A stretch of 60,268 bases of DNA, the filler included, from Hausera hauseri (lineage: Eukaryota): NCBI GenBank assembly GCA_046269625.1. It is 10 parts of 10 records of this genome, joined end to end, with 100 filler letters (N's around TTAATTAATTAA, not from the genome) between each part and the next. Parts side by side here need not be neighbours in the genome. Positions count along the whole stretch, not along the records: positions 43,965 to 49,475 come from JBJURY010238851.1; 9 more parts are not named here. One strand, written 5' to 3'. The position numbers and the translations under genes were made by a program. Position 1 is the stretch's first letter; every line of letters starts with the position of its first letter. Shown here piece by piece: positions 23,630-60,268 of this stretch. The notes under the pieces are model-generated. The model was not told the DNA's origin. It saw only the letters and a list, made by a program, of their open reading frames with translations, and did not search any database.

Positions 23630-23746
23630 CCATCCACCTCTACATTGAGCCCAGCTTCCTAGTGTATCCTTTAAAATCTTTAAGGATGTCTTTATATTTC
23701 GTTCGATCTCTTCTAGATTTTGAGTCTGATGATTAATTACTATTAT

Positions 23747-26030: not shown

Positions 26031-26157
26031 GGGTTCGTCCTCACTTAAATTTCTTAGATATTCTAGTCCGAAAGGCTAGTCTTTTTGTGGTTGGTAAACT
26101 GTTCCTCTTCTTGTGGTAATGGTGATACATTTTTAATCCAAAGGTCTTCAATCAATG

Positions 26158-26176
26158 ATCCCGGGTCACGGCACCA
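26158..26176 (-). promoter_or_regulatory. Primer-binding site complementary to tRNA-His, just after a 5' LTR end
   Basis: Minus strand ..TTGAACA aac TGGTGCCGTGACCCGGGAT, about 130 nt before the gag ATG. Confidence 0.85.
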
Positions 26177-26960
26177 GTTTGTTCAATCCTCACTAATTAG
26201 ACCAAAAATGATTAATTTCGTAATTTTGCCAATTAATTGGAAAACAATTTTTAGTTATTGTATTTCAAGATTGGGATATCGTGAGCTCTTACCTAGGTGA
26301 TAGTAGGTAATGTGTTACAAGCCAGTAATTTATTTTGTTTCTTACTCACCTAGGGTTTAATATCTTATTTATTTATTTAAATTTAGTTGGGCGGTCGTCA
26401 GGTAGCTTTAACCTGGTCGACCAAAATTCCAAATTTAAACACGCTTAATTACTTATTTATTTTTACTGATTCAAATGAAATATAACTCCAAGAGTAAGGT
26501 GACCAATATAATTAAACCAATTATGAGAATTTATGATACAAATCAAATTACGAGAATACACACTTACGTGAAGTCATTAAAAATATCGTTGTCAGAAAAC
26601 TCAATGTATCAATGTTCAATTCTTTCAGTTCTTGTCACCAATTATATATCCTTTATAGTCAAATTTTATTACAAAATTCACCATGGTCACAAGATAAAAT
26701 AAGACAATCATTAACAGTAATGTCGATGTATGAAACATAAATCGTGAACGATATATACACAATGAGAATAATGTAATTTTACAAATACCAAAAACGACAA
26801 CAAAAGCGGTATAATTACTAATTCAGTTAAACGTCATTGTTTCATACATAATTAATTTGACGACAACAATGTTTCATACATAATTAATTCGCTATTGTTT
26901 TGCTATTGTTTCGCAGTTCACAGATTTGACCGAGTTTGGAAGAAAATTGACCCAAATTTA

Positions 26961-27723
26961 TTAATCTTTCGGGAGGGGCATGTGGATGAATTTGTCGGTC
27001 GTTCTGGATTTGTATCCGATAGATTCAGGTTTGAACACTTTATTATCCACAATAATGGTTTCATCCACCTGGAGATGTCTTTTTCTGCCACACTGAGATG
27101 TAGTTGGTGCTGTTCGCACCCCTTCGGAAGCCGCACTTTTAATTATTAATTCATCAGTCCATTTCACTTGTTTGTACAACGATTGGTAGTACTGCACTAG
27201 GGCAGTACTACGAAGAAGAAACCCTTTTGTATCGTAGAATTTTCTGGCTAACTCTTTGAAAGTGCCCGTCACTAGCTGATACTGGCGAACAATTTCCTCA
27301 TGATAAAGAATGTCGCGGATTCCGGCCAGCCGCCGGATTGGGCATTTGAAATGATTTACTACCATTTCAATGACGTCGGCTACGATTACAATCTTGTCCG
27401 TCAATAATTCAGCAACCTTGCAATAGAAGTCCGGTTAGGTACGTTATGTGCGTATCAAAGTTGTTGATACGCTGTTTTTGGGTGATTATGCCATATAGTA
27501 TCGTGTCCCCGTGCAAAGTCATAATTGATGCCTCGATGGGTTTGAGTTGATTCCATTGGTCATAAGCCAAGTTTACGGCCGCTATGACCATATCACTATT
27601 TGTTATTTTATCGATTCTTCGGAACGGAATACTTTTATATTTAACGTAGTCCGGTTCTGGACGATTGAAGCATTTTCCTTTGGGCAGGCTTGGGCGAAAT
27701 TTCTCTTGCTTTATTATTTCCAT
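26961..27723 (-). pseudogene. Pseudo-DEDDh exonuclease-like cargo domain (split by a frameshift near 27405)
   Basis: IAAVNLAYDQWNQLKPIEASI..ILYGIITQKQRINNFDTHITYLT and KIVIVAD..PIRRLAGIRDIL..TFKELARKF align to the same domain in the 711-aa ORF. Confidence 0.65.
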
Positions 27724-27833
27724 TGCAAAGATAATTCGGTTAGTGTTGGAGCGGATTGTGAATGTGTTTGCGTTAAGAAATGTATGGTCGAAAGAGAGAC
27801 CATGTTCTACGTCCAGGCTGATGAGATCTCCTT

Positions 27834-28247
27834 TTACGGATGTTTTTTATCGGAGGTTTTAACTTGCAGTTGGCCAGTAACACAATAGAGATTCATGGAG
27901 TGAAAACGTTCATGTAGAATCAGTATGTCGGAAAGATAGAAGGAAATAGCCTTTGAAATTTGCATAAGGGCAATCGAACGATTAGCCATACTGTAGCTCT
28001 TTAAGTTATTTGGGATCTGTTGTGTTTGTGGATAATTAAGACTGATTGTAGTATCGTTGTGGCTTCTATAATATTGATTGGAGGGATTTGCGTTTATCAC
28101 GTGATTCTTTGCATTGTTATACCAATGCTTTGATCGGTTAATCGTCTGGATTTGGTGGAACGTTGATGAAGATACTATAAAAAACAAAGTCAATATGATT
28201 CCATACACGGTATTTAGACTCAACACAACGGTTACCATACACATCAC
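27834..28247 (-). CDS. Hydrophobic-leader ORF of unknown function inside the cargo region
   Basis: N-terminal hydrophobic stretch MVTVVLSLNTVYGIILTLFFIVSSS; same strand as the flanking cargo. Confidence 0.35.
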   Translation of the reverse strand: MMCMVTVVLSLNTVYGIILTLFFIVSSSTFHQIQTINRSKHWYNNAKNHVINANPSNQYYRSHNDTTISLNYPQTQQIPNNLKSYSMANRSIALMQISKAISFYLSDILILHERFHSMNLYCVTGQLQVKTSDKKHP

Positions 28248-28360
28248 TACGGTAATCGTTATGGTTAACGTGGGGTGAACTTTTAGACTAAAGAAAACCA
28301 GTGTTATTTGCTTATCTCAGTACTTAGGGTTGCGTTGATCGCAATCCCAATATCTAATTG

Positions 28361-30070
28361 TCAGCTGGGATTGTCTGTATCTAACGGATTCGTTAGATCA
28401 CGCATGTTAATTATAACCCAGCTTTGTCTGCTCCGTTTACATAGCGAGAGCGAGACTTTAATTACTATTATCAATATTACTATCAGCACTATGGGAACTA
28501 ATGATCCGATTAGTATCATCTCTAAATGAGAATGTTTATATGCGGCTCGGGAGGGTTTGCTAGTTACTTTGTTACTACTTGTATTGTTCTTATAATTCGT
28601 TTCACTCTTACGACTCTTCTTTGTAATTGCCGATATTACCTTGGTGGAAGTTATTTTATCGCTATCGTCCAATAATTGTAGAACCACCGTATATCTTGTG
28701 TCAGGGTTTAAAGCTGGGCATGGTGCTATCAAATAATCCGGTGTTATAACTTCCTTTACTACTATTGTATCTTGTTTCTTACAAGTAAATCTAATTTTTA
28801 TAAAATCTAACTCCGGTCTAACGGATATGATTAAAGCAGTCGGAGCTGCTATAAGGGTTACGTTTTCTCATATAGAGCGCTTTTGACGATAATAAGACGT
28901 GTAAGGTCTGACCATAATAGTCATTTCGTTTTTATCGGTCCAGAATTGCACCGCTGGTGTCGTAATCTTTTTCTGTATGTCATCGTATTCCTTTTGATTG
29001 TTAAATCGTATAAACATTGTTGGTCCTATTCGCTCTATTGGGTACTCAAATTTACCGTTCCTTCTCCGAAATAAACGATAATAAACGTGATATATCTTTC
29101 CCGGTGTAACCATACAGCAAACTCGTCGTTGAATACCTTTTAGTCTGCAGACTAAAATTTCTGAATTTATTGTTCCTAATAGTTTTATTGTCATTCGTCG
29201 ATTTTCTTTTAGTTGTATCATCGTTATTATCTCTATGCAACTTCGTCCACTTTTAAATCCCATTGATCTAGCTATCATCTGGTTAAATATTTTTTCATCT
29301 AGTTGAGTTTTGTTCATCTGTTGCCTAGTAGGAATCACTATTAATCTATAAAATTTTGTTTTCCGGCTTTTGTAATAATCTCCTTGTCTCTTTATAAGTT
29401 TAAGATATATATAATGGACACCTGAACCTTGTACCCTGCACTGTGTTTGGTTGGTATCTGGGTGAAATAAGCAGTTATATTGTCGCTCGCTGGGGTCTGT
29501 TTGATTATCATTACACGGTATTATTTGTATCCCCATTATATATATTGGGGGCATTCGTTCTGGTATACTCCAGTTTATCACTTTTTGACCTTTTTCTGAG
29601 TATGTAAATCTGTACTGTAGGTTCTTCATTAATGGGTCTTCTGTTATGGCTATTGCGTGCCGTATTTTTGCTCTTTCAATCTCTTTATTCGTCATTTGTC
29701 TAATCACTTCAGGAAATAACAAGAAGACACTTAATAATAGGTACCGCATTAACCAATGAGATCTATGAGTTGGGTTTACCTTGGCTGCTTTTTCATTAAC
29801 ACTTAGTACTATTTCCTTTTCACCTTTTCTTAACTCGCTTTGTTTGGGAGCCGGCTTGCATCTATTGACGTGAACCTTCACAGATGTATTAGTTTTCATC
29901 AAGCAAACATTCGGTAAATCCACTTTCTCCACTTCATACGGCCCTTTGTAGTGCCTGTCCAACTTGGACGTTTTACCCTTTTTAATTGCAGGTGAGTATA
30001 GCATCACTTGGTCGCCTGCCTTAATTTTTGGTTGTCTGGTTTTCTTATCGTAATACTTTTTATATTTTTT
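28361..30070 (-). pseudogene. Gypsy integrase C-terminus fused in frame to signal peptide - FN3-like ectodomain - TM (one in-frame TGA at 28868-28870)
   Basis: KKYYDKKTRQPKIKAGDQVMLY..SKLDRHYKGPYEV..VHVNRCKP, then WLMRYLLLSVFLLFP, CCMVTPGKIYHVY, CPALNPDTRYTVVL, TM MILIGSLVPIVLIVILIIVI. Confidence 0.8.
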
Positions 30071-30159
30071 ATTAAATTATACATAAATGCCTTTTAGAGG
30101 ACAATAATGTTGCTGGATTCGAACGTTCTAATATTTCGATCTTACTAAGATCTTCATCA

Positions 30160-37012: not shown

Positions 37013-38100
37013 TCAATGTTCTAAACAATAGTCATTCCTTAGTTGCTTTCGATGACGTGGACAAACAAGTAGATGATATACGCAATATAGGGAACGGCTC
37101 CACTTTTTGCAAACGTGACATCTTCGTGCTCGGTTGTGAACAACATTACCAACGGGAAAAATTACATCTTTCACTGGTACAACACATCCCATTTTGGCAG
37201 CAATTTTCTTTAGATCCTGAGATATTGTGCAACGTGGATGGGCCAATCTTTTTTCAATGTAGGACTTTGACAATTGAAAGGTCAACTGAAACAAAAACTG
37301 CTTTCTGTCACCAGAATAATCTCGCTTTCGCATTATTAAGAAAACATTGTAACACGAAACATCTAGAATATTGTAGTGAACAAGCATAGGACATCGCACA
37401 GTTTTTCTACGACATGTAAGGGTTTCTAAACAATCATCCAAACGATCAGCATCACTTTTGGTTCGGTTATCCCTCCTGTTTGTATTTAATGTCCGAAGCA
37501 ATGGTAAATGTTTCTTGAGAAGCTCTGTGACTAATGTATGCGATGTAAAATAACGATAGTTACAATTTCTTTCCCCAATCCATGATACGGTTCTGTCAAT
37601 TGCATTACAATATTAGTGCCTAAGTTTTTGTGCGGTTCCAAACGATTTCCTGCAGAGTGAATAAAAATTTGAAAGCATAACCGGATGAAGATTCACAAAT
37701 CCAAAAAATTTTCAGCCCAAATTGTCTTGGTTTGCGTGGAATGTAAGTTCTTCCTGCTATTCGTCCACTGTAGCCAAGTAACTGTTCATTTACGGTTAGA
37801 GAAAAATCAGGAACATAAAATCTTCTAAGGTTTCCATCGAACAAGGATATCACGTCCCTTACAGCTGAAAGTTTGTCATGTGTCTTTCTTTCTTCTCGGG
37901 TTCTTATGTTATCAAATCTCAAGGTTCTGAGGAAAAATTTAAAGCAGTTTTGTGACATGCATATTCTGTAAAAGGGACGTGCACTGAGAGAATCCCACAA
38001 CAAACTCAAATCATTGAAGTTATCTCTATCAAGTCCTACAGACAACATGATTGCAATACCAGTAATGTATTCATCATAAGAAAATTCACAATAAATATGC
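37013..38100 (-). pseudogene. piggyBac transposase, disrupted
   Basis: MSQNCFKFFLRTLRFD..DKLSAVR..LTVNEQL..YIPRKPRQFGLKIFWICESSSGY; YFTS; DRLDD..TCRRKTVRCPMLVHYNILDVSCYN; C-terminal Cys-rich RRCHVC..VCPRH. Confidence 0.9.
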
Positions 38101-38155
38101 TTATAGTAGTGTAAAAACGTCTGTTCTTTCCCCCCCGGGGGTCGCGAGAGGAATC

Positions 38156-38924: not shown

Positions 38925-41900
38925 GTGTAGCCATATGGCGGGAAAAATCTCGTCACTCATCTGCTAACCCCTCCAGTGCAACCACATTTTAGGTATTACA
39001 TCACCCCCGTGCCAAGATAAAGACTGTAAAGGGAAAAACAAACGCATGTGTCAGGCGTTGGATTCCATCTATAAATTTCTCCCTACTGTAAGTACTAAAT
39101 GTCACATGACGTGATCAGTTAGATGTTTCTGGCGCTTGTGGAGTTGTTTGAGGGAGAGATGATGCAGATTTTGTGGTGTTTTGGGAGGATGTTTTATGAA
39201 GATGTGAAAATGGAGAAGAAACTGAGAAGGGAAAATGGTCACGCGAAGAAGGCGAAACTGAAGATGGAAGCGAATCGTGCGATAAAGGTCACACGACTGC
39301 AGGCTGATTGTGTGGATGTGCAGGCGATGACGGCGAAGTAAGTGGTAAAAGAACAGTAGACGGAAGTGAGCATAACTAATTGTGACGTGTGAACGATTGG
39401 TGCGACGGATCAACATCATCGAGGAAATTGGATGATGGCTCGAGGGGGAAAAAGTTACAGTTAGGATTTGAAACAATGCTGTTATCCTGGTCATCGTCAA
39501 CGAAGAAATCTGGCTTAAGATTAGAAATGTGTACATTTTGAAGTTTGGCCTTTCGTAAAATAGTAGCGGTGTGAGAAGAAAGGTTTAGCAGTGTGTAAGG
39601 GCCAACGTATTGAGGCTGAAAACCAGAGAGTGACGGATCCTTAAGCTACACAAACTTGGCTGAGTATAAGTCCTCTGGAATATAGGATTTGTCTTTATTT
39701 ATAAGAAGGCAAAATGCGTTTGAGTTGATATCTACAAAGTGAGACTGTGCCGCACGAATAACATCATCTGACAGACTTGGATCGAGATTGGAGAGCTCAA
39801 AACGGCACGAATTGGTGTCCCAAAGAGAGCAACAGCTGGAGCACAACCTGTGGTGGTGAATGGCGTGTTGCGCCAACCACGTAGGACAAGCGGAATAATT
39901 GAGGTCCAGTTATGATTGCTGTTTGCCAAGATTTTCAAAGAAATCTTTATGGTGCGGTGAAATCTCTCAAGAAGACCATTTGCTTGGGCATGGTGCGGCA
40001 TCGTATGGAAATGGGCTATCCCCAAGTGATTTACAAGAGATTCAAAAAGGTCAGCTTCAAATTGAGGATCCTGGCCCGTTATGATGTGACGTGGTGAACC
40101 AAAATGGCTGACCCATATCTTGAGAAATGCATCTGCCACAGAGTCGGTGATGGTTGATCGAAGCGGAACGGCTTCCGGCCAGTGAGAAGCTCGATGCATC
40201 ATTGGTAGGTTATATTGATAGCCGTTGTCGGATGGCAAAGGACCCACAAGATCCAAATGAACGGTGTCAATAGAAGACGTGCAAGGAAAGTGATAAAATG
40301 GAGGTTTGAGATGTTAATGAATCACAGTAGGGCACCATGGGCACCACAGTTGACATGCTACACATCCCTTAACCCTGACATGTACATCTGTACACATAGT
40401 CGGCTATACAACATCGCACTGCTGTAGACGAAATATAGCTTTTGAATCCGGATGATAGAGTGAAAGTGATTGAAAGCTGTCTTTGTAGCGATGGAGCAAG
40501 AATGATTTGCTTGCTGGTCGAGTTGGATGTGTCATAAGCGATGCCATCGATGATTTCAACAGATTTAAAAGCTTGAAGAATGTCAGATGATGGCTGATTA
40601 CTTCTTAGGACTTCAGATGAAAAAATTTGCTGAACTGTAATTGAAAAAAATAAACTAAACGTGGATAAGTATGATATCTGTCGTTCTTGTCTCGGCAATG
40701 GATGATTTAACGTCATTATATGAAGTAGAGGCATATGGTCGGTTTGGATGGTAAATTGTCGTGACAGAAGCAAGTGCTTGAAATGCTTTACCGCTAGAAC
40801 TACATCCAAAAGTTCACTATCGAATGTCGAGTATCGACTTTCTGGTTGCGTGAGCTTTCAGGAATAGAATTCGAATGGTTCATCGGCACCATTATATATT
40901 TGGTATAATATCGCACCAGTGGCTGTGGTGGAGGCATTGTAATGAATATTAGTTCCGCGTTGGGTTTTGGAAAGGCCAAAATTTCAACGGTTTTCAGACC
41001 TTCACGAAGGCGATCAAATTGATTTACTAGATCGGAAGTCCAATGGATTAATTGTCTTTTCTTCCCAAATGAGAAGTGTGCAAAAGGTGCCGTTAGTTCG
41101 GAGCAGTGTGGCACGTATTTGTGTATGAAATGCAATGTCCCTCGAAAACTCCTCATATCGGTAGTAGTAGTTGGCAAGGTCACATTTTTTAATTGTTGCA
41201 AACGATCAGGCTGGGGCGAATGCCCTTCGGGGGTACTTATGTGGCCTAAGAAGTTGACGCGTTTCTGGAAGAAATTGCAACTGGCGAAATTAACTTGCAG
41301 GTTGCCTTGACGCAATCTGTGAAAAATAATTCTAAGGTGCTCATGATGTTGTTGGATGGAGCTGTAAGCGACTAATATGTCATCTATGTATGGGTGAGCA
41401 AAATCGAGACCGCAGAAAACGGTGTCAATGTGGCGCTAAAAGGTCTGGGATGAGCTACGCAAGCCGAAAGACATGAAGATGTATTCATAAAGACCAAATG
41501 GTGTGATGGCAGCAATTTTTGGAATGTCATCATGGGCATCAGGAATTTGATGGTAGGCTTTGTGCAAATCAATGGTAGAATAGGTATTGGTGTTGTTGAG
41601 GCTATAAAGAATATCATTAATGAGTGGTAGAGGATAGGCATCTGTAATAGTTAGATTGCTTAATTGTCGATAGTCGCCACATGGCCTATATGTGCCATCT
41701 TTCTTTACCACTTCATGAGGAGGAGAAGCCCAGGGAGAAATCGATTTCCGAATGATGCCAGACCTTTCCAGTTCATTAAATTCCTGTTCCACAGCTTTAC
41801 GTCTGCGTGGCGACAAAGGTCTGACCTATTGTTTGATAGGTCTCTGATGGTCTGTTACTATGTGATGATAAGTTGTGGATAGATGCTTGATATTGACGTC

Positions 41901-43400
41901 CCTTTTAACTATGCGAAAGTAAAAACGTTGTGACGTATGATTTAAGATTGGAGTATAGAGACAAGAATGAATGAGGCATATCATTAAAGCGAACAGCTCC
42001 AGTGATTGACGGAAAGCAACTGGCATCGCTACTGTCGACGCCTAATTTAAATTTTTGTTTTATAATAGATTTATGATTATCGTTCATAATTGAAATATTT
42101 CCGACTTTATTGGAAGTTGTTTTATAGATGACGAGGCGTTCAACATGTTCACAGATGAGTGCAATGAATTGCTCTCTAAGTTGTCTACGAGACACATGTT
42201 TGGAGTTGCAATCGAGTTCCTGCTTAAAAGACAGCTGTATTTTCATTCGACCAATAGATCATATGCGGCAAGAAAATCTAAGCCTATTATGGGAGATTTA
42301 ATGTTGGCCACGTGGAACTCCCAGACAAACTTATCTGGCAAGTTGGCGAATATGAAAGTCAATTCTGTGGTTCCTGCAACGTGCAACGGTTGACCACTGG
42401 CAGTGAAAAGCGATGGACAGGAAATCATAGTCGATGTAGGAACGAAGGAGCGGAAAGGCAGCTCCTGAGTCTATCAGGAAGTCGATATGTGAAGTATCTA
42501 TGCATAACAGTGCAGCTTTCAACAGAAAGACTGCAGAGGCGGTGTTGAAACGGCCAGAAGATTGAGCGATATTGCCTGCGCCAGAAGGTGCCGTAAAATC
42601 TGGCGGCATTATTAGTTTTTTGAGGGATTTGGAAAAAAGGAAGAAGAAGAAAAACGAGGGGATTTATCATTGTAATGTTTACAACCAGGCACACATAATC
42701 TAGCCTTTGACTAAAACTTATTGTGATAGACGCAAATAAGGTTGTCCACAGCGTACCTGTCGCTGTAGAACCGACAACCCAAAAAGCATTTCCCATCATC
42801 CCTTCGAAAGCGCGTGTGATAGAAGCAAGTCATGCGTCCTCCAGGTGAAATGGATCGAGTAGAGTGTCTTAAAGTGCTTCTCTCCCTTGAAGGTCTAGTT
42901 TCTCTTCGTCGAAGCCCATTAAGATTATTTAATTGGGTAGTAATGGCCGAAATGGACTTCTGTAACTTGTCAAACTGTTGCTGCATCATTTGCAATAGTT
43001 AAGTAAAAAATGTTGTGTCTGTAGTTGGAGCACATGTGGTTGCAGCCCAATAGGAAGAGAACTGTTGGTATGAAGAATCTCAAAGGATTTGTCAGCCATT
43101 ATTGCCATTTTTTCGATAGCAGTGAACTCGTCGACAACTGTGAGCAAGGCTCTGATTGAGGTGGGCAAAGATGATGAGAAATAATGGCAAATTAAATCCC
43201 CTAGAGCGCTATGCTGCAGAATGGCTGTTTGGAGAAAGTCGGATGGATTTTGGCTTCCTATCGCGTGGTCGTTAAAATGCTTTTGCATTATATTGTCAAT
43301 CGAAGGATCTGTGACATGCAGCACAGCTTCACAGAGTGTCTCGTGCTGTATCGAGGATTGTAGCAAGTAGGGGGAAGGGAGGACACGAGGCCAGTATAAA
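38925..43400 (-). mobile_element. Decayed Ty3/gypsy retrotransposon, CsRn1/Kabuki-like (gag-PR-RT-RH-INT, PPT, LTR start)
   Basis: Gag CHCC-type motif CFYHTRF..KCFLGC; protease FLIDSGA; RT SPWASP..RPCGDYRQL..DAYPLP..IDLHKAYHQI..TPFGLYEY..FGLR; RH TDHMPL; INT DLVGPLP..WPEAVPL..QANGLLERFHRT; YVGPY; PPT GGGGGTGA then TGTAAT at 39000. Confidence 0.88.
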
Positions 43401-43438
43401 TTTCCTATCTCGAGGACCCCCCAGGATTGGAAATCAAT

Positions 43439-43560
43439 AATCAATATTTTATGTAGGAAATTTTGGCCTCATATTGGTTTCATTATTCCAACCCCCAAAA
43501 AATCAATATTTTATATGGGAAATTTTGGCCTCATAGTGGTTTCACTATTCCCACCCGAAA
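43439..43560. repeat. Two-copy tandem repeat of about 62 bp downstream of pPolB
   Basis: AATCAATATTTTAT..GGAAATTTTGGCCTCATA..GGTTTCA.TATTCC twice; its tail also occurs at about 10762. Confidence 0.75.
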
Positions 43561-43680
43561 TTTGATATAAATACGCCTGCTTAAGTGTCACTTGTGAAAA
43601 ATGTGTCAACATTGACATGTACAAAACATAAGACAAAGACGTAAGTACAAATATGTATTAAAATAACAAATACAAACAAC

Positions 43681-43864
43681 CAAATATTTACACAATAATG
43701 TCCATAGGCGACACTTTTGTTTTTCGATATCCAGTCTCGTTTGTCGTCGAATGGATCTAGAGCTTTCTTTTTGGTACTCATCGTCATCAGTTGATGGTTC
43801 TTGGTCCCAATGCGTTCTTGATCAACAATTGTCCCACATCTATTCTCATACGCTTGCAAGTAGT
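43681..43864 (-). pseudogene. Polinton/adintovirus pPolB extreme C-terminus (contig-truncated)
   Basis: QERIGTKNHQLMTMSTKKKALDPFDDKRDWISKNKSVAYGHY. Confidence 0.85.
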
Positions 43865-43964
43865 NNNNNNNNNNNNNNNNNNNNNNNNNNNNNNNNNNNN
43901 NNNNNNNNTTAATTAATTAANNNNNNNNNNNNNNNNNNNNNNNNNNNNNNNNNNNNNNNNNNNN
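43865..43964. other. Artificial contig linker 7
   Basis: Same 100-bp spacer. Confidence 0.99.
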
Positions 43965-44850
43965 CGAAGGAATTCAGGGCCGAGTCTTAGGAGAAGTGCT
44001 ATATACATACAAATGTAAACGATTAGACTTACCCCTGATTACTGGTACTCCTTGCTACTCTGAGATACCTGTTAAGTATAATGAAGAAATCCGATACGTT
44101 CAACCGATTATCCGAGTAATTCTGACACCACATACAATACCCACGAAAATTCAAAATTGTTCAGCACTAAATGAACCATTTATTAAGTACGACAATCAGG
44201 ACCTTTGGGTTAGATTACCGGACCGTGAAAGAGTTAAAGAAACACCTAAGAAATTGACGATGGCAAATTTGAAACATGCAATTGAAACCAATATGTTTAC
44301 GGACGTGTCCAAATCCGCATTATACAGCAAAAAAGAAATTGATTCATTCGTGAAGTTTCTAGCATATCCTCGACAGAGAGAGCAAATAGTAAATCGCGGA
44401 ATATACCGGGTAATCGACGACACAGCCGGAGAAAGAAAATGGGACCGGTTATGGACACCTGACGCCTATATTAAAATCGTTTCAAATCTGTGGTATAAAA
44501 TGTGGGGCGGATTCCTGAAATTCGGCCAAGTAGCTTCTGGGTTTCTGGCCATATACTTTATCGTACAAACTTTGAAAGCCTGTATCAATTCCATATTAAA
44601 TGCCTATGAGATTTACAACTTAACGGGACTATCTCTAAGTATAATAGGTGCTCTATTTTGCCCACTTGGTAAAATCATTAAAGCTTACTATGAAAAACAA
44701 TGGCGAGGTAAACTAGAAAAACATGTTGATTATAAATCGAAAAAGCCTTTCCAAGGGATACCCCGTCAAGTTCCGATAACGACAACGCCCCTGGATATTA
44801 TCCTACCACAGGGATTACAAAGGATACAAAAAGAAAATTCAGGTTTATGA
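43965..44850 (+). CDS. Env: C-terminal half of a chuvirus-type / gB-like fusion glycoprotein (5'-truncated)
   Basis: GRVLGEVLYTYKC..CYSEIPVKYN..QPIIRVIL..ALYSKKEID..LAYPRQRE..KMWGGFLKFGQVASGFLAIYFIVQTLK; paralogous to 21556-22510. Confidence 0.85.
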
Positions 44851-45379
44851 AACCAAAATGGAAAAATAGACCTAAATCACTTGTTGCGCCATATGAGAAT
44901 TAAACAGTGCCAATTTGCAGATTACCAATATTAATAGACCTAAAGGATCCATATGGAAAAATGGAGGAGTATATAAAATTACTTAATTTACCAAAATACT
45001 CCCAGGAAGAGATACGTCAGTTCGTTATCACGCGAAACATGGAAAACAATTGTGTAATATTACCTACATCACCTAAATTAGGCATACCGCCTCTTATACC
45101 TTATCACAAAACAACTCGATTATTGAAAAATCAAGTAGATAGAGAACCCCATTTAACGACCTCAGAATCCGTTAGTAAGCAAAACATAACATTACCACGT
45201 GGAAGTTGCTACCCAGACTTGACTGAACTCAAAGAGGAAGAGAAAGGAGTGGAAAACAATGCTCAATCTTTAGAAAGTTTAGCGGTTATATTATCAACCG
45301 ACACTATCCGATATTGTTCAGATAGTTACAGCTTGATGGAACCACATATAGGTAATCATAACGATGTATTAACGTTTCT

Positions 45380-48300
45380 CGAGTTGTTACGGGATAATCG
45401 ACCTCACACCATAGTTTACTTTGATAGCTTTGAACTGAATTCTATGGTTGACACTGGAGCTAACGTTGCATTAATAGCAAAACATGCAATTCCAAAAGAA
45501 TTACAATCTCAAATAAAATTGGCTACTAAAGGCTCGCCTGGCACTACTTTGGCTTTTTAGCAATGCAGTAAACCTTATGGATACTGGAAAAGTGAACCAT
45601 ATATTTTTGGACAGAGAGTCAAGAAAACCTTTGATGTAATGCTTACCTAGGATCCGCGATGCATTTTGTGTATGAATGTGTTGCGAAAATTGGAAGGAGT
45701 ACACATAAACTTACAATCGGGATCAATTTGTCCAAATAATGAAGATATACCCCCTAATTATGCCAGAACAGATATCTGGGTAGGACATGTTGAGAAAATA
45801 CCACCCAATTCTAGAATGGTTATACATGCCAGAACGATATTCTCAGACAACAGCGTAATTGAATTTGTGCCGAAAACTCTTCAAAATGGGCTTATATTAC
45901 CACATTACTGCGTTAAAGTACTCGGTGGTACCATTCCCCTAGAAGTTCTAAATCCCACTCCAAGACGTGTCACGATATTCCCTAAAACGAAAATTTGACA
46001 AGCACTGGAAACTACACGCCAAGAAAAATACAACAATAAAGTTGTGACCATTTCAACAGCGGAACATAATAATGTTGAAGCCACACTTAATGTCGTTCTT
46101 ACTAAAGTCAAGAAAATTTTATCAAATGAATATCTAAGGAATTTCTCAGACCTCATTTGTCAGTACCTTGATATTTTTGCAAAAAACGAAACGGATATCG
46201 AACGAACAGATTTGGTCAAATTTAGATTGCCATTTATGCTCGACCCCACAACCGGAAAAGAGGTAGATCTGTTACAACAATCCATACCAAAATTGTACCT
46301 TCCTCCAAAAGCACTCCAAAAGGAAGTTGAGGAACAAATTCAGGCAATGCTCAAAAAACGTATCATAGAACCAAGTCAATCACCATGGCCCTCTCATAGT
46401 TATGGCCAAGAAAGCTAATACAAATAAACATCGCCTGTGCGTAAATTACGTCACCTTAAACAAGCACTTAATGAATCATGCTTACCCAATTCCGTGAATA
46501 CGAGACATCATTGATGAACTAAAGGATTGTAAATATTTTACCACATTGGACTTACAAAGTGGGTTTTGGCAAATTCCCGTAGCTGAATAGGATCGGTGGA
46601 AAACCGCATTGAAAACCCATACAGGGATCTACCAGTTCACACGCATGCCATTTGGCTTAAATGCGGCACCCACTTTCTTCCAACAGTTCATTCGTCTAGT
46701 ACTAAAAGGAGTGCGAGGGTTATCGTACATTGACGACATCCTCATTGCGTCCAAAACATGGTCTGCCCATTTAACAAAATTGAAGGAAGTATTCGACTGA
46801 ATCAGACTTGCTAAATTGAAATTAAACCCAAAAAATGTGAATGGTGTAAGAAGGAGGTTAGATACCTGGGAATTGTCGTTTCCAGTAAAGAGATATATAC
46901 CAGCCCTGAGTTAGTAACTAAAATACTGGAATACCCCCTCCAACCAATGTGCATGAAATGAAAGCATGGTTAGAATTGGTAGGATTTTATGCCGCCTTCA
47001 TCCCTGACTGCAGAAATAAATCAGCCTCAATATAGGTTATTACGGAAAGACCAAAAATGAGAATAGACCGAAGAGAACCAGAACATTTCGATGAAATTAA
47101 AAAACGAATGGTGTCATCACCAATATTGAGGTACCCAGATTTTTCATTACCATTCATTCTAAAAACCGACACTAGCATTAAAGCTATTAGTTTTATATTA
47201 GCTCAACAAAATCCAGAAGAAATAACTCAGTATGTAATCGCCTACGGCGGACGTAGCTTGAATAATGCAGAGCAGAAATATTCAACTACTATTAGCTATC
47301 CGTGACGAATTGCGACATTACGAATATTATATCTACCGTCATAAGATTATAATATTTACTGACCATAAGGCACTATTATCTTTACGCTCAGACAACAGAC
47401 ACGTATCAAGTCGACTCCAAAGATGGAAGTTGGAACTTTTGAATTATGATCTCGAGTATCGATATCGTCCTGGCAAAGAAAACATGGACTCCGATGCTCT
47501 GTCAAGAATGCCATACGAAAGAATAGTAGCCGCAGCTTATAAATCAACCGATAACGAAAGTGATAAACATCTGAATGAGAGAATCATTAATGATGTTACA
47601 AGAACAACGCCAAATCCAAATACGAAATATCGAGACCTTACAAAACCAAGATCCCTTTATTGTTCAAATCAAACAATTAATCAATGGGCAATTAGTTGAC
47701 TCGGCATCAAATCACATTCAAAAATTTTATGAAAAGAACCGAGTGAATTTAGAAATCGAAAATGGCATTTTACGACTGAGAGTCGGAGAACGAAAACTGG
47801 CCATGGTGCCGGCACCGGCCATCAAAGCCGTCATGCTACAAGAACATGATTCACACTTAGCTGGACATCCGTCTTTAAATAAGACTTTAAAGCGTATAAC
47901 CGCTAAATATTATTGGCCTCAAATAAATAAACATATTGAAGGATGGGTACGTTCATGCAAAATGTACGCTACAAGAAAAGATAGAGGATTTCGTATCAAA
48001 CCGTTTTAGGAAGCTTACCTGAAGCTCGTAAGCCAATGGAATTGTGCGCAATGGACATCTATGGGCCCTTCCCAACTTCGGACTCAGGATACAAATACAT
48101 ACTGTCGCTTGTTGACTACTTCGCTCGTTACGTTGTACTAGTACCATTGAAAAACATGACTAGTAGTACACTTGCTGAAGCCTTTTTCTATAAAATTATT
48201 GCCGTACTGGGCACCCCGAAACAGTTGTTGACTGATCGTGCACCTTACTTCATTAGCGAGCTCTTTGAAAAACTATCAAAAATATTCCAATGAAAACATT

Positions 48301-48900
48301 TATTAACGACATCATACCAATCTCAATGTAATGGTATGATCGAAAGGATGAATCGTACCATTCAGGGTATTCTTTCTACAAAGGTAGCACAGGACCAAAA
48401 AGATTGGCTCAATCATCTGATAACTACGGCTTTCGCAATCAATACTACACCTACCAAAAGTACAATCATTCCCCTTTTGAGTTAATGTTCGGACGAGCGC
48501 CTTTGATGACATTGGATACTGAATTACTGCCATCTTCCTTGTTAAATAGTGATCATATGGATGAACAGTACCAGAATTTGCTTAAACGTCTTGAATAGTT
48601 TCAACGCGAAGCAAAGGAGTTTGAAGAGAACTACAGATCCGGATATAAAAAGCAATTTAACAAAAAATCACGACCACATACTTATAAAATTGGAAATTAC
48701 ATAATGGTCCATTACCCCGCGGCGAAGAAAGGCAAATAGTTAAAATTAACACACACAGGCCAAGGACCGTACAAAGTTGTCGATGTGCGCCCACAAACAC
48801 TTTTTATTCAGAAAGGGCCCGACAAATACGAGGCTGTATCTGTTCAACGAGTAACCCGAGCACCTACTCCATACAACGATTTCATACACGAAACAGATCT
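45380..48900 (+). pseudogene. Ty3/gypsy pol (PR-RT-RNaseH-INT), disrupted
   Basis: MVDTGA; IIEPSQSPW; LDLQSGFWQI; RMPFGL..YIDDILI; YPDFSLPFILKTD..AEQKYS..TDHKAL; HDSHLAGH..YYWP; MDIYGP..VDYF..LLTDR..NGMIERMNRT; GPYKVV. Confidence 0.93.
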
Positions 48901-48949
48901 TGAAATACCCAAAACGGGAAAACCCAAAATAGCAGCAATGCTCAAAATT

Positions 48950-49475
48950 CAACCGATGAGTAACTCAGAGCATTGCCCCGTCCACTTCATTTTTAATAAA
49001 CACTTAGGTATCTTCATCCTCCTGTTCCTCGTTCTCTTAATATTTATTACGGTTGCTGATACCAGCCTAGATACCACAAATACACCATACACTGAATTAA
49101 TTGAATGCGCTACGATTATCAGTATAGATATGCATAAACCCAGTATTTGCCTTCGGACTCACCTGTAATGATACACCACACGGTTGATTTTGTCCTAGTG
49201 TCGCAGCATAACGTCTCTGTTTGCACAATCCTCGAAATGCGTAATAAAACCTGCTGCTACGTCTATTATGTTCGGACATACACGTGCTATGTAATATTGA
49301 AAGTAAACAATACCAATACTATTCTTTGGGAGCCAAATATTATTCTTCACGTCCCTACTTACCGGGAGATGAACTTAGTGGAAACTTCTGATGTATTTTC
49401 GCCAAACCCTTTTATCGCTCGATTCCTGGAATATAATATTGAAATTTCTAATGTCGATCTCACAAGACAACAGTA
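48950..49475 (+). pseudogene. Post-integrase cargo: signal-peptide-like segment and Cys module (3'-truncated)
   Basis: In frame with the integrase tail: HLGIFILLFLVLLIFITVA; after a frameshift VCTILEMRNKTCCYVYYVRTYTCYV, resembling the CC-V..Y module of contigs 4 and 5. Confidence 0.65.
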
Positions 49476-52932: not shown

Positions 52933-54984
52933 TTACAGTTGGATCACACATTTGTAATCTCTTTCTACTTCTTCTTTCGTTGTTGTACTGTTGGAAAGTC
53001 CGTAGAGATTTTCTAAAATAAGTTCGTCTTGTTTGGCGAACAGTAACATTTTGATTTTCTGCTTGCTAGTGTTTTTCAGCTTTATCATTCTGCCTTGCCG
53101 TGGTTTTGGAACTGGTATCTTGTCTACTTGCATTGGGATAGGTTGCTGAGTCATTATTGGGTCCTCATTACGGTTTAATAGTGTTTCTACATTATTTCCG
53201 ATCAGTGCTAAATGCAGTGTGTTGCATTTTAAGTTCCGGTAAACAAATCCGATCAACTGTCCGTGAAGTTGATTTGGCAAAATTTGGTTTTCCTGATTTT
53301 GAGTCGTTTGTGGCTCAAAAAGGAAATTGACATTAATTGTCTGGAGTTTTTCTCCGTATATCAACATAGATAGCTTGGTTGAGGATACTTCCTTTTTTGG
53401 TTGTATTTCATTTATTGCTTTAGGACATCTGTTTTTCAATTGTTGAATAAGACTCATTTTTGCATTTGAGTTTTCTTTTGGTTGTATTATTTCCAGTTGG
53501 TAGTTTTCGTGATATTTTTCTGGTATTACTTTGAAATCGGCATAATCGATAAGATTATTTGATGGTGCTTCCCATTCAAATTCTACTTTTTCATTAGAGC
53601 ATGTGTTAGTTAATTTACCATGGATGTCCATTATCGTTTGAATTATACTTTCCGCGTTTTTGGGAAAGTCATATGTGTATCCATATACTCGCGGTAATTG
53701 GGTCAAGTTAATTTTGAGATTTTCCTCCTTGAATCTAGTTTTGGTATTACTTACAGCCAACAGGTCGATCACTCCAAATAAGAACTGTTCTGGAATTCTT
53801 AGTGCTTGAATAATTATTCTGGTATTTGCGCTGATTACGGTATATCCGAACAAGTATTTAATCACTTCACTTCTAACTTCTTCTTCATCTTCTGATTGCT
53901 GAATTATCGAGAGAGAGAGCCCGTGAACATGCTCATTGGTATTTGATATTTTCTTTCTAGGATTAATGTAGGCCTGATAGATTCTGAGTCTTTCCTGATT
54001 TGTGATGATGACTTCAACAGGCAGTGGTTCGCCATTCATGCCATACGCTAGTGAGACTGCTAAATATCGTTGATTTACAGCTTTTGTTAGCTGATAATTA
54101 TTTATCTCCTTCGTCGGCCTTTTATAAAATATCGGTTCCATTAGTCCCATATTTTCTTTCATATATTGACAAATTTCGACTCCGAGTACCACTGGTATTT
54201 GTAGAACGCGGAAGTGTATATTAGTATGGAACATTGCAGACTTTAATTTCATCGTTGTCTTAGGTCCGATTGTGTTTATTCGTGGATCAATTCCGTCGTA
54301 ATTTTCGTTCTGAGCTCGCCATTGTATTCTTCCACAAGCAACGTGTATGAGGATTTTTTCAAATGGTGGTTCCGGCTGAAACATTTTGGCGAAGTCAACA
54401 TCATATAATGGGCTTTCTAATTTAATAATTCGAAATAATCTTTCATTTAAGGTGGTTGTTTTTAGAGAGTTATCTAAATATCGACATTGGGTATACATTA
54501 AATCAGCTGAATCTTCCATAAGTTGAGTTAATTTGTTGTAGAATTTTGAGGAATAAAGATTGTTATGAGTATCATATATTGTGACAAATTTCGGATACAT
54601 TTCTGCCCATATGCGATTCTTCAATCGGTCTTGTTCAGTTTCCTCTAGATTTTTGGTAATCTGTTCTTCCAATCTCATTCTTTTATTGTCAGGTAAGTCT
54701 GCATAAGTGAAAGATTTTCTTCTTATTTCGTTTTGAGTTTCAAACATTTTTGTATTTTCCAGTCTCATTTTTGGGACAGTAGTGCTTAAAATTCCTCTGC
54801 TCTTTGTGAATGGTTGAATTGGATTCTGGAACGTGAAAGAGGTGGTGCACTGATTAGAAGGTAGTATAACCCTTCGTTTAGGGTTAGGGACTACAGATAC
54901 GACTGAACTGTCACTGTCGGATCCATCTAGGTCTGGATTGAACTGAGTTTCGGTTGGTTCTGGAATATAAGTTGGTGTATCCAT
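52933..54984 (-). CDS. Intact LTR-element cargo protein with a central pseudo-DEDDh (REX/ISG20-like) exonuclease domain
   Basis: Uninterrupted ORF (711 aa from 55068; likely start MDTPTY at 54984); YLAVSLAY..IYQAYINPRKKISNTNEHVHGLS..EEVRSEVIKYLFGYTVISAN..GVID follows the DEDDh pattern; ends about 150 nt before the PPT. Confidence 0.7.
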   Translation of the reverse strand: MDTPTYIPEPTETQFNPDLDGSDSDSSVVSVVPNPKRRVILPSNQCTTSFTFQNPIQPFTKSRGILSTTVPKMRLENTKMFETQNEIRRKSFTYADLPDNKRMRLEEQITKNLEETEQDRLKNRIWAEMYPKFVTIYDTHNNLYSSKFYNKLTQLMEDSADLMYTQCRYLDNSLKTTTLNERLFRIIKLESPLYDVDFAKMFQPEPPFEKILIHVACGRIQWRAQNENYDGIDPRINTIGPKTTMKLKSAMFHTNIHFRVLQIPVVLGVEICQYMKENMGLMEPIFYKRPTKEINNYQLTKAVNQRYLAVSLAYGMNGEPLPVEVIITNQERLRIYQAYINPRKKISNTNEHVHGLSLSIIQQSEDEEEVRSEVIKYLFGYTVISANTRIIIQALRIPEQFLFGVIDLLAVSNTKTRFKEENLKINLTQLPRVYGYTYDFPKNAESIIQTIMDIHGKLTNTCSNEKVEFEWEAPSNNLIDYADFKVIPEKYHENYQLEIIQPKENSNAKMSLIQQLKNRCPKAINEIQPKKEVSSTKLSMLIYGEKLQTINVNFLFEPQTTQNQENQILPNQLHGQLIGFVYRNLKCNTLHLALIGNNVETLLNRNEDPIMTQQPIPMQVDKIPVPKPRQGRMIKLKNTSKQKIKMLLFAKQDELILENLYGLSNSTTTKEEVERDYKCVIQL

Positions 54985-55098
54985 GATGCTGAAAAAGAAT
55001 GAAATAGTATAGCAGGTCGTTTTTAACGGCCTGTTCAAAGAGTAGGTGGTTACTCTTTGACTTTTCATTTGATATTTGTGTTGGTGTAAATCTATTGG

Positions 55099-55198: not shown

Positions 55199-58100
55199 GT
55201 TTAAATTCCAGGCATCGACAGGTGAGTTTGAAAGGCTGGAGGAGCCTGTATAATCCCCGAGCTCCTTGATCCAATCTCCGAGGCTTCCCGCCGTTTTGTC
55301 ATAGAATTTTAACGGGGACCAGTCAACGGATAACTTTGCGGCGCAGAGCAACGCCTTCAGACTATTCTGCCTTATTGTTTCGAAGGCATCTTCACCTTGC
55401 TTGCTGAGGTTCACTGACGGTATCGATTTTACCATGAAAGACAGGTGATCTTCAACCTCTTGGTGTCTAATGCACGATTCGCTAGCCTTCTCTATTCTCT
55501 GACATGGATGGATGATCTCAGCACTGGATGCCGACACAGTAAAATCGCTGTCAAGTAGTCTCAGTGTATCGATTACACCGCAGCGGTACGCGTATTCAGG
55601 ATACCAGTTGTCCCCGTTTCCAGACGAAGAGTTCCTATCGCCTTCCGGGCATGAAGAAAAGTTTTTGTCCACTCCCCAAGATACGATATCACTTGATATT
55701 ATAAAATGGTCGCCATATTTTATCTCCTCTATGGTAGCATTCTTTGTTTCTGTAGATCTCGGGTGTATTTCCTGAAATTCGAAATCACGAGGAGATAAAT
55801 CGACTGCATCATGTGAGGGTTCTTCTTGTTTGAATCTCTGAGCATTTTTTTCTGAGAATTGTACCATGCCAGTGGCTGATCGAGCCCGTGGTTTACGCCC
55901 TGAAGGAAAGTTTCCGTTATTTTCATCACCACTTTGGAGGAGACAATTTTCTACCCGCATGTAAGAAAATTGTTCATTTGACTGTGGCTTTTTGTTATGC
56001 GTAGAAAGATCTTTAGTGGAATCTGTCGGGTTTTTTAGATCGAGCCTCTTTTTCTGGAATTCATTAGCTATTCTTCCATGTCCCCGAAAGCAATGCCCAA
56101 AAGTTCGCTTATTTTTAGAACACTTTGGTCGTGTAGACTCAGTCAACGGATTCTCGCTCTTTTGCTGGCTATCCGCGTCGTTTTGCAACGAACTGCAGTA
56201 AAACGGGACACCATTTTTAATCGAATGTATATTTCTTCTTTCATGCAGCTGCAGCGGCTGCTCGGGGGTGATTATCTGATAAAAGAGATCAATCACTCCC
56301 TCCCGGTACACACCAGACTCGTGTCTGTGGCAAGCCGAGTTTGACCGCGACCTTGGAGCACTAACAACGGTATAGTCGCCGAGCGTATAATCTTCGTCGT
56401 CCTGCGGTATTAGTCGTCTGTAGTCTTGAAATTTTGGTGACTGTCTTCGAGTATCGATATGTTGAGCTGACCGTGTTTTAATGCTGTAATCACGATCAGA
56501 AGGATAGTCATCGTGGTCAGGACCACTTCCACCCTCGCAGTACTGTCGGTTCATGCTTTGAACGCCACGATGTCTACCTGTGGTGAAACGGTTGCAGCCG
56601 TGACTTTCCGGAAACACTGTGCTATGTGGGGTCAAGAGATCTTCTTGCTGGTCAAGACTTCCGTGATGGTAGAAGGAATCCTTTCTTCTGTCCTCATACG
56701 TCACCACTCTTTGTATGTCAATGGGAGTACTTCTGCAGCTTGACGAGTTATGACTTTCGTCATGGAAATCATGACGTCGGGACGTCTTTCTTGCGCAACC
56801 CATTCTTATGTCGGATTCATTTTCCGATTTCTGATTTCTGCGCAGCCCACGTCTACCAGCTCTCACCCTTTCATCTGCATCTTCTTCCAGATACTCACTC
56901 TCAATCTCCCCACCAGAGGCTGGTAACGTATTCTCGCTGTTTTCCTCATCGTGCGAGTCTCCTGTTGAATTTCCCAGAGTGGTCGAGCGACTTTCCTGGG
57001 TTTCTGCGTGAGAGTAAATCTTTTTCTGGAGTCGTGCTATTTCTCTCCCACGGGAACCTTTTTTATTTTCACGCATTGTTACAACAGATTCCCTATAAGT
57101 GGAGCCTTGCCCGAGGACTTCACTGTTTCTCGATTCTAAGCTGTGAGATGATCTGGACGAGGTGCTCTTCACTCCATGACTCTTGAATCTTCCATCGGCC
57201 GAGTTGTATGGAGTTACATGAGCTTTCTCTCCGCTGGATAATTGTCTTCCAGTGTCGTATTTAAAAGATGACGACCGGTAAGAAAGACGCCCGGAATTAC
57301 TTTTTCTACTGTCAACGTCTTCATAATCCGAACTTCTAACAGATCGATCTTTCATTGATTTAATTGACCCAGTTTCTCCGTACTCGTCCTGGAGTTCACT
57401 AAACCTCGACTCTCTGCCGCGTCTCTCGCGGCAGTGCAGGGTGGCTTTTAACCGCTTCTGATTGTCATAGTCCGACTGTTCGATTGGTGATTGCTTAGAA
57501 ATGCTGACAGATTCATCGTGACTGGTGACGTCGTCGTCGTCATAATGACTATCATAATTTTTCGACCCGCGTAGGCTTCGAGACCTTGGCTTAAACTCGC
57601 AGAGAGATCTGTCATCATGTTCTGACTGAAACCCGTCACTCGACTCTCGGCACCGATATTCGCTGGGCTGGGACGAATATATAGGCTTTGACTGAGTTTT
57701 GTTAATGAAATCTTTGCGCGCATCTTTCATTTGTCTTAGCCCCGAATGTTCTTGATATCCTTGACTCGATCGTCTTTTGGACGATCGCAAGGATTCCATC
57801 AAGCTTGGCGTTGCTCTCATTTCCTCGGTGTCCGAAAATTCTTTGTTTTTATGCGATCTCTTTCTTGATCTGGTGTCTCGATCATCAACACAGCCTGCCA
57901 TTGTCACTTCCGTGCTAGAGCAATCAGTATTTGGTATTGACGAAGGCTTGGAAGATACAACGCTAAGCGGACGCTCTGCTCCTTTTCTAACTAGGCCGTG
58001 TTGATCTTGGATGGATTTAAAAAGTGGAGTTCCTTCCAAGATCGTATTTCTATCTTTTTCAAAGCTTACAGGATCGATATTCGGGGATCTCTTTGCGCCC

Positions 58101-60110
58101 TTTTGCTCGGAAGAGTTTGAAATAGATCGATTCATCTCGCCCATTTCTGTGACTCCATAAGTTGTGCTGTCATCTTGTCTGCCTCCATGAAAGCCTTCAG
58201 ACAAATGTCTCGTCCTCCGGTGTTCGTGATCAGATTTCGTAGTGTCTGCTGACAGCTGACCCGAGGCTGACCGACCCTGATAATAGCGACTACTTAGCGA
58301 AAATTCAGAAGTCGCTTGGTCATGTTGTCGCTGAGATGATACCTCGCAGGCCGATCTTTGCATGCCTAATGCTGGCCTACCGACGTCGCAGTACTGTCCT
58401 CTCTTGAAAGAGTCACAGGGCGATGGGCATCTTTCAGTCAGAAGTGGCAGACTACAGTCAATTTCTCTCTGTGATGAGGGGTAGGAGTCCTTGATCCTTT
58501 CGTAGTCCCCGGGCTGACAAATGCAGTGAGCTGTTTCACTCAAGTCAGTCGCACCCATCTTCACTGATGTTGTTAATTCATTATCTAAACTATCTGGATG
58601 TTCGCCGGATGATTTTTCTGCACAGCCCATTACGTTCAGTACGACAACATTGCCAGGTGAACGCATTGATGTGCATACCTGGATACTAGTTGGACTTCGA
58701 ATTTCATATTTTACTGTTATTTGCATATCTTGTGTTGTTTCCGACGTAGCATCTTTGCATGTTTCATCTCCACGTCTTATACCTTCTTCCCTTCTGACTA
58801 GCTGTATAGGTTCTTTACTGGAGACAGTTCTAGCAGGGATTTCAGTGTATACTGGCTCCTCCTTCTTCGTGGTTCTCATGTCTATCGGGCGCCCAGACAC
58901 ATATTCCTGCGATCTCTCCCTTAATCTAGTTTTACTCGTCCTTCTGCTTTCAGTCACTGTAGGTGTTCTTCTCTCTTGTTGTTTGTCATCTCGTGTGATC
59001 TGGCCCCCGTGAGCCTCAAATTCTTTCTCGGCAGGTGATGCGGGCAGTCGGCTGTCTTCAGCAGCTGGCTTCTGCTCACCGATAGACTGCCTCCTCTCGT
59101 ATTGTAGAGTCTGTTTAGAATCACTTTCAGCCAGAGTTTCTACGTGTTCAATGTCTTCTCGAGGTATGCTTTCAACAAGAGATTCCTTTTCAGACTGATC
59201 CAGCACTTCGTTCTCATCACGTAAACTGTGTTTCTGAGACATTTCAGCTTCAGCAAAGTCTCTGCTGGGAACCGCCTGTGGCTTGTTGACTCGCTCCAGG
59301 GATTGCTTGGCCTGTTTAACAAATTGCTTATCAGAAGCTGTCACAGATTCACGGCTATCAGTTTGCGATTTTTTATCCGAGCCGGACGACGAGCGTTTTC
59401 TTTCAGTGAGAGTTTGGACTGCAGGTAAATCTGACCGCTGGCTCATTTTTCGTTCAGAAGTTTTCCTAGATACGATCTCAGGTGTTGGTTTTCTATCAGA
59501 AGCTTTCACAGATGTTCTACTGCCACGCAATCGATCTTCGTCTGGCTTTACCTGCTGAATAACTTGTTCTTTTTGTTTTTTGTCTGGTTCTTTTACGGGG
59601 CGATCACTTCTTCTACGGTTTCCTTTGCCGGAGACAGCTGGCTGCTTTTTGACGTCACTCCTTCTGGACCTCGATTCCGATCTGCTGTCTACCAGGGAGT
59701 GCTCGTCCGGTGGCTCTGTCGACTGACTGCTTTCAAGTATACGATCGCCATCAGACGTGATTGTCGACTGACTGGCTAAAATGTCTCTTTCAATTACAGG
59801 CGTCTGCCGCCGCATATCCGCCACGCGTTGCCTTTCACCAGTAACGGCAGACTGTCGACCATAGGACGTGGAGTGTCTGTCGGTAGCTGACAAGAAACGT
59901 CTGCCGTGATTAGTTTGTCTTGATTTGTCCTTGGCGTCGGACCTGCGTGTGTCCCTTTGCCGGAATGACTCTACAGAGTGTCTTCTGTTGTTGTAGAATG
60001 CCGGAGTTCCGTGCCGCCTTGGACTCGACCGCCGGTCCTTTCTGGTGACAGGCGGCTCATTCCAGTCATCACATACTTCGTATGGTTCAGGGTCTTTTAG
60101 ATACGCCAAG
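55199..60110 (-). CDS. Giant exon of a host gene encoding a Ser/Arg/Glu/Asp-rich, probably disordered protein (3'-truncated)
   Basis: About 4.9 kb open frame; candidate acceptor TTGTTCTCCAG ending at 60111; no recognisable domain; visibly more GC-rich than the other contigs. Confidence 0.7.
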
Positions 60111-60268
60111 CTGGAGAACAACATGAAGATTAATTTAGACAATACAAAGTTTTTAAAAATTAGTTTGTTCTGCTGTTTATGCAATTACCTACATCCAAAC
60201 CAGCTGACACTTTCTCCATGATATGATTTAACCCTTATTTCTTCACATTTGGTTCAAGGTGGGAGGGG

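Follow-up and report, generated by a model that had tools for sequence, protein, structure and literature searches.

Envelope glycoprotein gene ahead of protease and pol in a decayed Ty3/gypsy element of Hausera hauseri

How does a retroelement make its Pol proteins when the gene for a membrane glycoprotein lies ahead of them? This question is raised by one contig of the Hausera hauseri assembly GCA_046269625.1 (JBJURY010238851.1), which forms positions 43965-49475 of the DNA analyzed here. The whole stretch, which we call the window, is 60,268 nucleotides (nt) long and consists of 10 contigs joined by 100-nt spacers, N runs with TTAATTAATTAA. The contig under study (5.5 kb) is cut by a spacer at either end: it starts inside an envelope gene (env), right after the spacer at 43865-43964, and ends about 600 nt past an integrase. 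Gag, a long terminal repeat (LTR) and anything else upstream of env are off the contig, and to speak of a gag-env-pol order for this copy is an extrapolation. We find the best explanation of the contig to be a dead piece of a Ty3/gypsy element present in many copies. Its gB/chuvirus-type env lies upstream of protease, reverse transcriptase (RT), RNase H and integrase, and while the element still worked, env and pol likely shared one reading frame. We put the probability of this reading at roughly 0.8.

A sequence-only reading of this DNA had proposed that the contig opens with the C-terminal half of a class III fusion glycoprotein, and structural comparison bears this out. The env feature (43966-44850; all features of this contig lie on the plus strand) is open for 294 codons, from 43966 to 44847, and is closed by a TGA at 44848-44850. 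Its translation aligns to positions 368-601 of the 653 in the Pfam family Monjiviricetes_fusion (PF24664) with E 6.5e-38. We modeled it with AlphaFold from a 128-sequence alignment (predicted local distance difference test (pLDDT) 80.8, predicted template-modeling score (pTM) 0.48) and compared the model by Foldseek with BFVD, which returned 19 chuvirus-type glycoproteins at E<=0.001 (best 4.5e-12; chuvirus G at E 1e-10). Against PDB, the top 14 rows were all herpesvirus gB or varicella glycoprotein, including herpesvirus gB domain IV, at weak E values of 0.057 and up, and a profile of the 128 env sequences matches gB of Epstein-Barr virus (E 6.5e-4). Env is thus a gB/chuvirus-type, class III fusogen. 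Other routes were less productive: phmmer of env against PDB gave no matches, a fold predicted from the single sequence was unusable (pLDDT 37), and a wide structural search (VIA) was dominated by a long helix (best Z 6.7, no gB row) and was uninformative.

Near its C-terminus, env has a predicted membrane anchor (residues 189-207, 44530-44586) with a hydropathy of 1.71, and in 12 of 12 relatives we find one strong hydrophobic segment at this end (1.79-2.43), followed by a weaker one (1.01-1.71). The counterpart of the weaker segment here (residues 220-238, 44623-44679) scores 1.65; it falls below 1.6 in 11 of the 12 relatives and is probably membrane-associated rather than spanning.

Behind env, the domains follow the Ty3/gypsy order of protease, RT, RNase H, H2C2 zinc finger and integrase core, by both Pfam and tblastn. 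The sequence-only reading had placed the DTG codon of the protease about 600 nt downstream on the same strand; it is at 45450, exactly 600 nt past the env stop. The protease itself (45402-45700; Pfam RVP E 0.0052; tblastn with the proteins P0012 and P0151) has two internal stops. Between protease and RT, at 45750-46010, lies a candidate dUTPase-like domain, weakly indicated by blastp to P0155 and P0154 (E 5e-4 and 1e-3). This interval is homologous between the window copy and its relatives; its profile gave dCTP deaminases as the sole three PDB matches (E 0.9-1.2), the Pfam dUTPase family was found, weakly, in 1 of 5 members (E 0.046), and Atlas returned unnamed eukaryotic clusters at 0.94. 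RT, connection and RNase H (46318-47531; Pfam RVT_1, RT_RNaseH_2 and RT_RNaseH; tblastn) are broken by stops and frame changes, and the integrase, with its H2C2 zinc finger, core and GPY-type C-terminal part (47617-48865; Pfam Integrase_H2C2 and rve; tblastn), is broken as well. The best RT matches are 40-50% identical and have gypsy-like domain sets; none of 120 RT matches (262-2000 amino acids) carries an env. With segment limits taken from the tblastn and Pfam matches, the 4.05 kb from 44850 to 48900 contain 12 in-frame stops and 9 frame changes, or 5.2 per kb. Judged by its sequence, this copy is dead and unable to make Pol.

The copy is one of many. In the public run X1 (share 0.48), 5705 contig records, placed at 80% likeness, fit the stretch and cover 30 of 30 bins, and 2719 of them are less than 90% alike, showing that the element belongs to a multi-copy, diverged family. 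X1 may be the source sample rather than an independent one, its depth is no copy number, and 6 of the approximately 5,700 records are itemised.

We next consider the junction itself. In the protease frame, 44736-44900 and 44904-45557 are open, and the frame overlaps the last 37 env codons. This overlap (44736-44847), in which both frames are open in the stop map, is the likely site of the break between env and pol in this copy: two single X1 contigs carry length differences inside it, at a low depth like that seen at several of the pol frame changes. From there a linker (44851-45401) runs in the protease frame to the protease and is spanned by contigs of other copies. It has one stop, at 44901, where 9 of 9 X1 contigs differ from this copy. 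The distance from anchor to DTG, 307 codons, compares with 124-376 in 12 relatives. As env and pol likely formed one reading frame in the working element, the env stop in this copy is probably a decay break in a formerly single env-pol ORF.

The linker also holds a YPDL motif (45210-45221). Motifs of the form YPx[LI] occur in the linkers of 6 of 12 relatives (mean 0.55 and maximum 4 in 2000 shuffles); among 73 stand-alone glycoproteins, 29 carry one within their final 80 residues, a count without shuffle control. In this copy the env-frame tail lacks the motif, which occurs in the protease frame 80 codons upstream of the DTG. A 19-nt purine run at 45231-45249 had gone unlisted in the sequence-only reading, which saw no polypurine tract (PPT) between env and pol; we rejected the run as a PPT, since it is in-frame coding sequence inside the open protease frame about 200 nt before the DTG.

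A full HMMER scan of 1.84 billion proteins with env gave 426 matches at E<=0.001, of which the best 150 are listed. In nine of the 12 best, the ORF that holds env also encodes an aspartic protease after it, recognized by Pfam in 8 and by motif in P0011. The remaining three stop short of one, two within or at the env match and P0010 50 residues beyond it. Among the best 150, a protease follows env in 14 (11 by Pfam, 3 by motif); P0030 was dropped from this set as a chance motif match. Env and RT-RNase H stand in one ORF in P0003, P0008, P0009, P0054, P0136, P0151 and P0154, two of which are cluster members added to the HMMER matches, and six of these seven have the integrase too. Together the seven tile the contig, 43965-49475, colinearly. 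Marks of gag (CCHC or Retrotrans_gag) precede env in P0003, P0007, P0011, P0021 and P0136, and P0006 has a Bcl-2-like match just before env (E 0.00096). A YQESDF motif is found in 7 of 15 long relatives, and a CxTGxS motif in most. Longer env relatives were absent from the 1371 candidates (516-2000 amino acids) of a word-index search, and a metagenome scan for a related locus gave 65 pattern matches, none of them confirmed.

Two features of these proteins deserve mention in their own right. Several D[TS]G protease motifs per polyprotein occur in P0151, P0007, P0009, P0001, P0002 and P0154; the 4844-residue P0151 has 7, two of them past the integrase, and P0009 has 3. Tandem proteases in a retroelement polyprotein look unusual. 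Also, P0003 (HBK71150.1), an env-protease-RT-RNase H-integrase polyprotein, is listed under a Flavobacteriaceae metagenome-assembled genome as a hypothetical protein, and is probably animal DNA binned into a bacterial genome.

Several observations weigh against a single env-pol frame. The protease of this copy is out of frame with env, and stop and start overlap in an ATGA at 44847-44850. At the supposed break, the length differences cover a minority of the depth (8.7 of 73.6 and 7.4 of 31.7, one contig each), and the two frames of the overlap align about alike to the tails of relatives (best z 2.1 and 2.6 for the protease frame and 1.5 for the env frame, in 12 comparisons). The relatives are just 26-36% identical to the window env, and in a quick tree (150 columns, without named references) the window RT is a long, unplaced branch outside a well-supported clade of five single-ORF relatives; its expression strategy could therefore differ. 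Env before 44735 is without breaks, although the rate in pol would predict about 4 (P about 0.02, or 0.06 with the tail break counted; a post hoc test), and the second hydrophobic segment, at 1.65, leaves room for two membrane passes on hydropathy alone. If env and pol are truly separate frames, then Pol might be made by a programmed frame change in 44736-44847, by reinitiation at the ATGA, or by the foamy-virus route of a spliced pol RNA. Besides the ATGA and the position of the RT, this alternative draws on a protease frame open from 44736, on the absence of a listed length difference over most of the depth at the site, and on an env frame cleaner than pol. It has to contend with the lack of a canonical slippery heptamer (X XXY YYZ) in 44600-44850, with the family's tail motif sitting in the protease frame, with fusion in 9 of the 12 best relatives, and with 9 other frame changes in the same copy that are plain decay. 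We therefore regard it as improbable, and take the same doubtful view of its fuller form, a separate unplaced gypsy lineage in which env and pol would be in different frames, Pol would come from a regulated frame change or the stop/start overlap, the late-domain-like YPxL motif would have moved from the env tail to a Pol leader, and a second surface protein would stand behind the integrase.

Two further explanations question whether env belongs with this pol at all, or still does. Nesting, recombination or misassembly could have put the env of another element in front of a pol without one. The RT phylogeny, which does not tie pol to the env-pol relatives, would allow this, as would the X1 depth (140-560 in the linker bins vs 1600-5600 in env) and a purine run followed by TG at 45231-45251. 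However, contigs of diverged copies cross the linker: one ungapped X1 record of 354 nt, carrying 39 differences, runs over the env stop from 44760 to 45113, and another, which has a 38-nt skip, covers 45119-45508 and reaches the protease. The sequence-only reading had seen no PPT, LTR or PBS between env and pol, and we see no insertion boundary there: none of the 15 joints and 6 loose ends listed (27 and 896 further) marks one in the linker, and no direct repeat is listed there (the inverted-repeat list gives 25 of 52 pairs). Moreover, the 200 nt before the DTG are too short for an LTR, a primer-binding site and gag, and relatives have the same order, the same protease-dUTPase-like-RT arrangement and the same post-integrase membrane segment. 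A nested origin of env is unlikely, and a foreign env of any kind is largely refuted. Alternatively, the host may have domesticated env, keeping it open and closing it with a new stop while pol decayed. The 770 nt without a break would fit this, but that test was made post hoc, and the X1 differences point the other way: of the 40 best-supported rows (1185 further, in a listing biased toward invariant sites), 6 lie in env, which makes up 16% of the length and so is not less diverged. All 6 are at the first or second position of a codon, which is what change without selection would give. We consider domestication very unlikely.

Returning to env and pol as one reading frame, how would a working element make Pol? 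We propose that a Gag-Env-Pol polyprotein would enter the endoplasmic reticulum through an internal signal before env, and that the single env anchor would halt transfer, so that everything after it, from the tail and protease to RT, RNase H and integrase, would be back in the cytosol and fold there. The protease could then cut itself and Pol free of the env tail. Attachment to Env, in place of a classical Gag-Pol fusion, would bring Pol to the budding sites. The tail's YPxL motif resembles, in our estimation, a retroviral ALIX-binding late domain, and by analogy may recruit ALIX and the endosomal sorting complexes required for transport (ESCRT). A second signal behind the integrase would open a further membrane protein.

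As a dead, truncated copy, the locus is of little importance in itself. It adds one more divergent lineage to the gypsy elements with env before pol, and the comparison yields a testable model, in which a single membrane pass would leave Pol in the cytosol and attached to Env, and a YPxL upstream of the protease could make the env tail a driver of ESCRT budding. We did not find this model stated in the accessible portions of PMC6431247 or PMC13524379. A search of titles found no paper title on a YPxL-type motif in such elements; titles alone are not proof of absence.

The sequence-only reading had described the order as atypical, had known gB/chuvirus captures from BEL/Pao elements, and had asked how Pol is made past a membrane protein. 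The order is indeed atypical, but it has already been described. In planarian Burro elements, according to the part of the report that is available (PMC6431247), env lies in frame between gag and pol in one ORF of approximately 4,900 amino acids, in the order gag, Bcl-2-like, env with mononegavirus glycoprotein matches, protease, dUTPase-like, RT, RNase H and integrase; BURRO1 is abundant and active, as stated in the available part of PMC8532177. The accessible text of PMC13524379 describes GAG-ENV-POL gypsy elements with gB-type ENV from Nematoda, Bryozoa and Platyhelminthes, in three phyla and not monophyletic, with up to 215 copies in Schmidtea; these were defined by an ENV upstream of POL with a gap under 2000 nt, and the copies included need intact ORFs. 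Because such gypsy elements have gB-type ENV (PMC13524379, same portion), the capture, known from BEL/Pao elements such as Anakin, is not confined to them. The main text of PMC13524379, as far as it is accessible, contains no treatment of how Pol is made and mentions neither Burro nor a late domain; we infer that its Schmidtea elements are Burro. For the question of Pol, one polyprotein, as in the single ORFs of relatives, is the simple and likely answer.

How closely does the window copy resemble these systems? Like Burro/GYPSM1, it has a fusion-glycoprotein env before the protease, and it may have the dUTPase-like domain between protease and RT, weakly indicated here; its nearest relatives are single polyproteins, and one, P0006, has the Bcl-2-like match before env. 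ORFs with ankyrin repeats and a RING finger are also present, but on other contigs of the window, unlinked to the element. Burro-like elements are giants of over 25 kb that combine multi-kb LTRs with Bcl-2, RING and ankyrin modules, against a contig of 5.5 kb here. Unlike Burro, the window copy is broken, with env and protease out of frame, and its RT is unplaced; the likeness is one of description, not of Burro sequence. With the GAG-ENV-POL 'ancient errantiviruses' the element shares a gB-type env less than 2 kb upstream of a gypsy pol (600 nt from stop to DTG) and its multi-copy nature. By eye, the YQESDF and CxTGxS motifs of the window's relatives, and the motifs of a second env in the window, at 20700-30159, resemble Schmidtea ENV rows in the accessible part of PMC13524379. 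Those errantiviruses are intact, unlike the window copy with its 12 stops and 9 frame changes, which lacks the intact ORFs required there. By analogy, then, the element would work like Burro or a GAG-ENV-POL errantivirus. Its architecture is already described, and this copy is a dead one from such a family rather than an intact member.

There is also a likeness to BEL/Pao elements of the Anakin type, in that the env belongs to the same Pfam family. The env match P0085 has DUF5641, presumably the BEL/Pao integrase tail, and then this env. In Anakin-type elements, the chuvirus glycoprotein comes after the integrase (available parts of PMC13524379 and PMC12440569). Unlike in Anakin or Tas, the window env precedes the protease, its pol is gypsy-like, and the ORF behind its integrase has no PF24664 match. 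We dropped Troyka (PMC12440569, available part) as a comparison, as it has no env and is not relevant.

That post-integrase ORF begins with a hydrophobic segment resembling a signal or anchor (49004-49057), in frame with the end of the integrase. A hydrophobic segment also stands behind the integrase in P0003, P0009, P0054, P0151 and P0154. Translation of the following stretch (49058-49475) gives the start of a broken, cysteine-containing, accessory ectodomain-like ORF that is cut by the contig end. The ORF had no Pfam match, no usable Atlas match and no blastp match to the tails of relatives. We considered whether it might be the N-terminal half of the same env, in a permuted or tandem unit, and dropped the idea: it has no PF24664 match, and the membrane ORFs that relatives carry at this place are unrelated. 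Together with the YPxL motif enriched between anchor and protease, a putative second membrane protein joined to the end of the integrase is a small addition to the known architecture.

We found no nucleotide similarity between the contig under study and the other nine contigs of the window, and no tRNA genes in the window. A second element lies on the minus strand of 20700-30159, where an integrase C-terminus fused to a membrane ORF is followed by an exonuclease-like ORF and an AT-rich spacer of about 900 nt, and, beyond the spacer, by gag, an env and, between them, a long insert. The end of the insert aligns to the Bcl-2-like region of P0006; the env is of gB type, full-length but broken. The exonuclease-like ORF, by eye presumably of REXO/DEDDh type, has no Pfam or PDB match, and no protease match was found after this env. 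The order pol-end, gag, env could reflect two tandem elements or a permuted layout.

On the minus strand of 16237-20298, two ORFs of 994 and 359 amino acids, split by one stop, together have a receptor-like layout: a signal-like segment, a long ectodomain, a membrane anchor and cytosolic ankyrin repeats (Ank_2 E 4.8e-15). They weakly match the ankyrin region of P0151 (E 0.007) and are possibly an accessory module of such elements. A 382-residue ORF with a RING finger lies on the plus strand at 11230-12375; RING motifs are reported in Burro in the available part of PMC6431247. The minus strand of 39646-43468 carries a decayed gypsy gag-pol with no env match, unrelated at the DNA level to the contig under study. 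Long open ORFs of 721 and 1662 amino acids without a Pfam match occupy the minus strands of 52936-55098 and 55199-60184, the second on a GC-richer contig (46%). Also on the minus strand are broken ORFs at 37016-38153 and 2393-3899, which by eye resemble a piggyBac-type transposase and a Polinton-type DNA polymerase B, respectively. Finally, a dispersed repeat of about 300 nt, 86-93% alike (D2, D4, D8 and D16), is found at the ends of two contigs, at 10762-11129 and 43538-43864.

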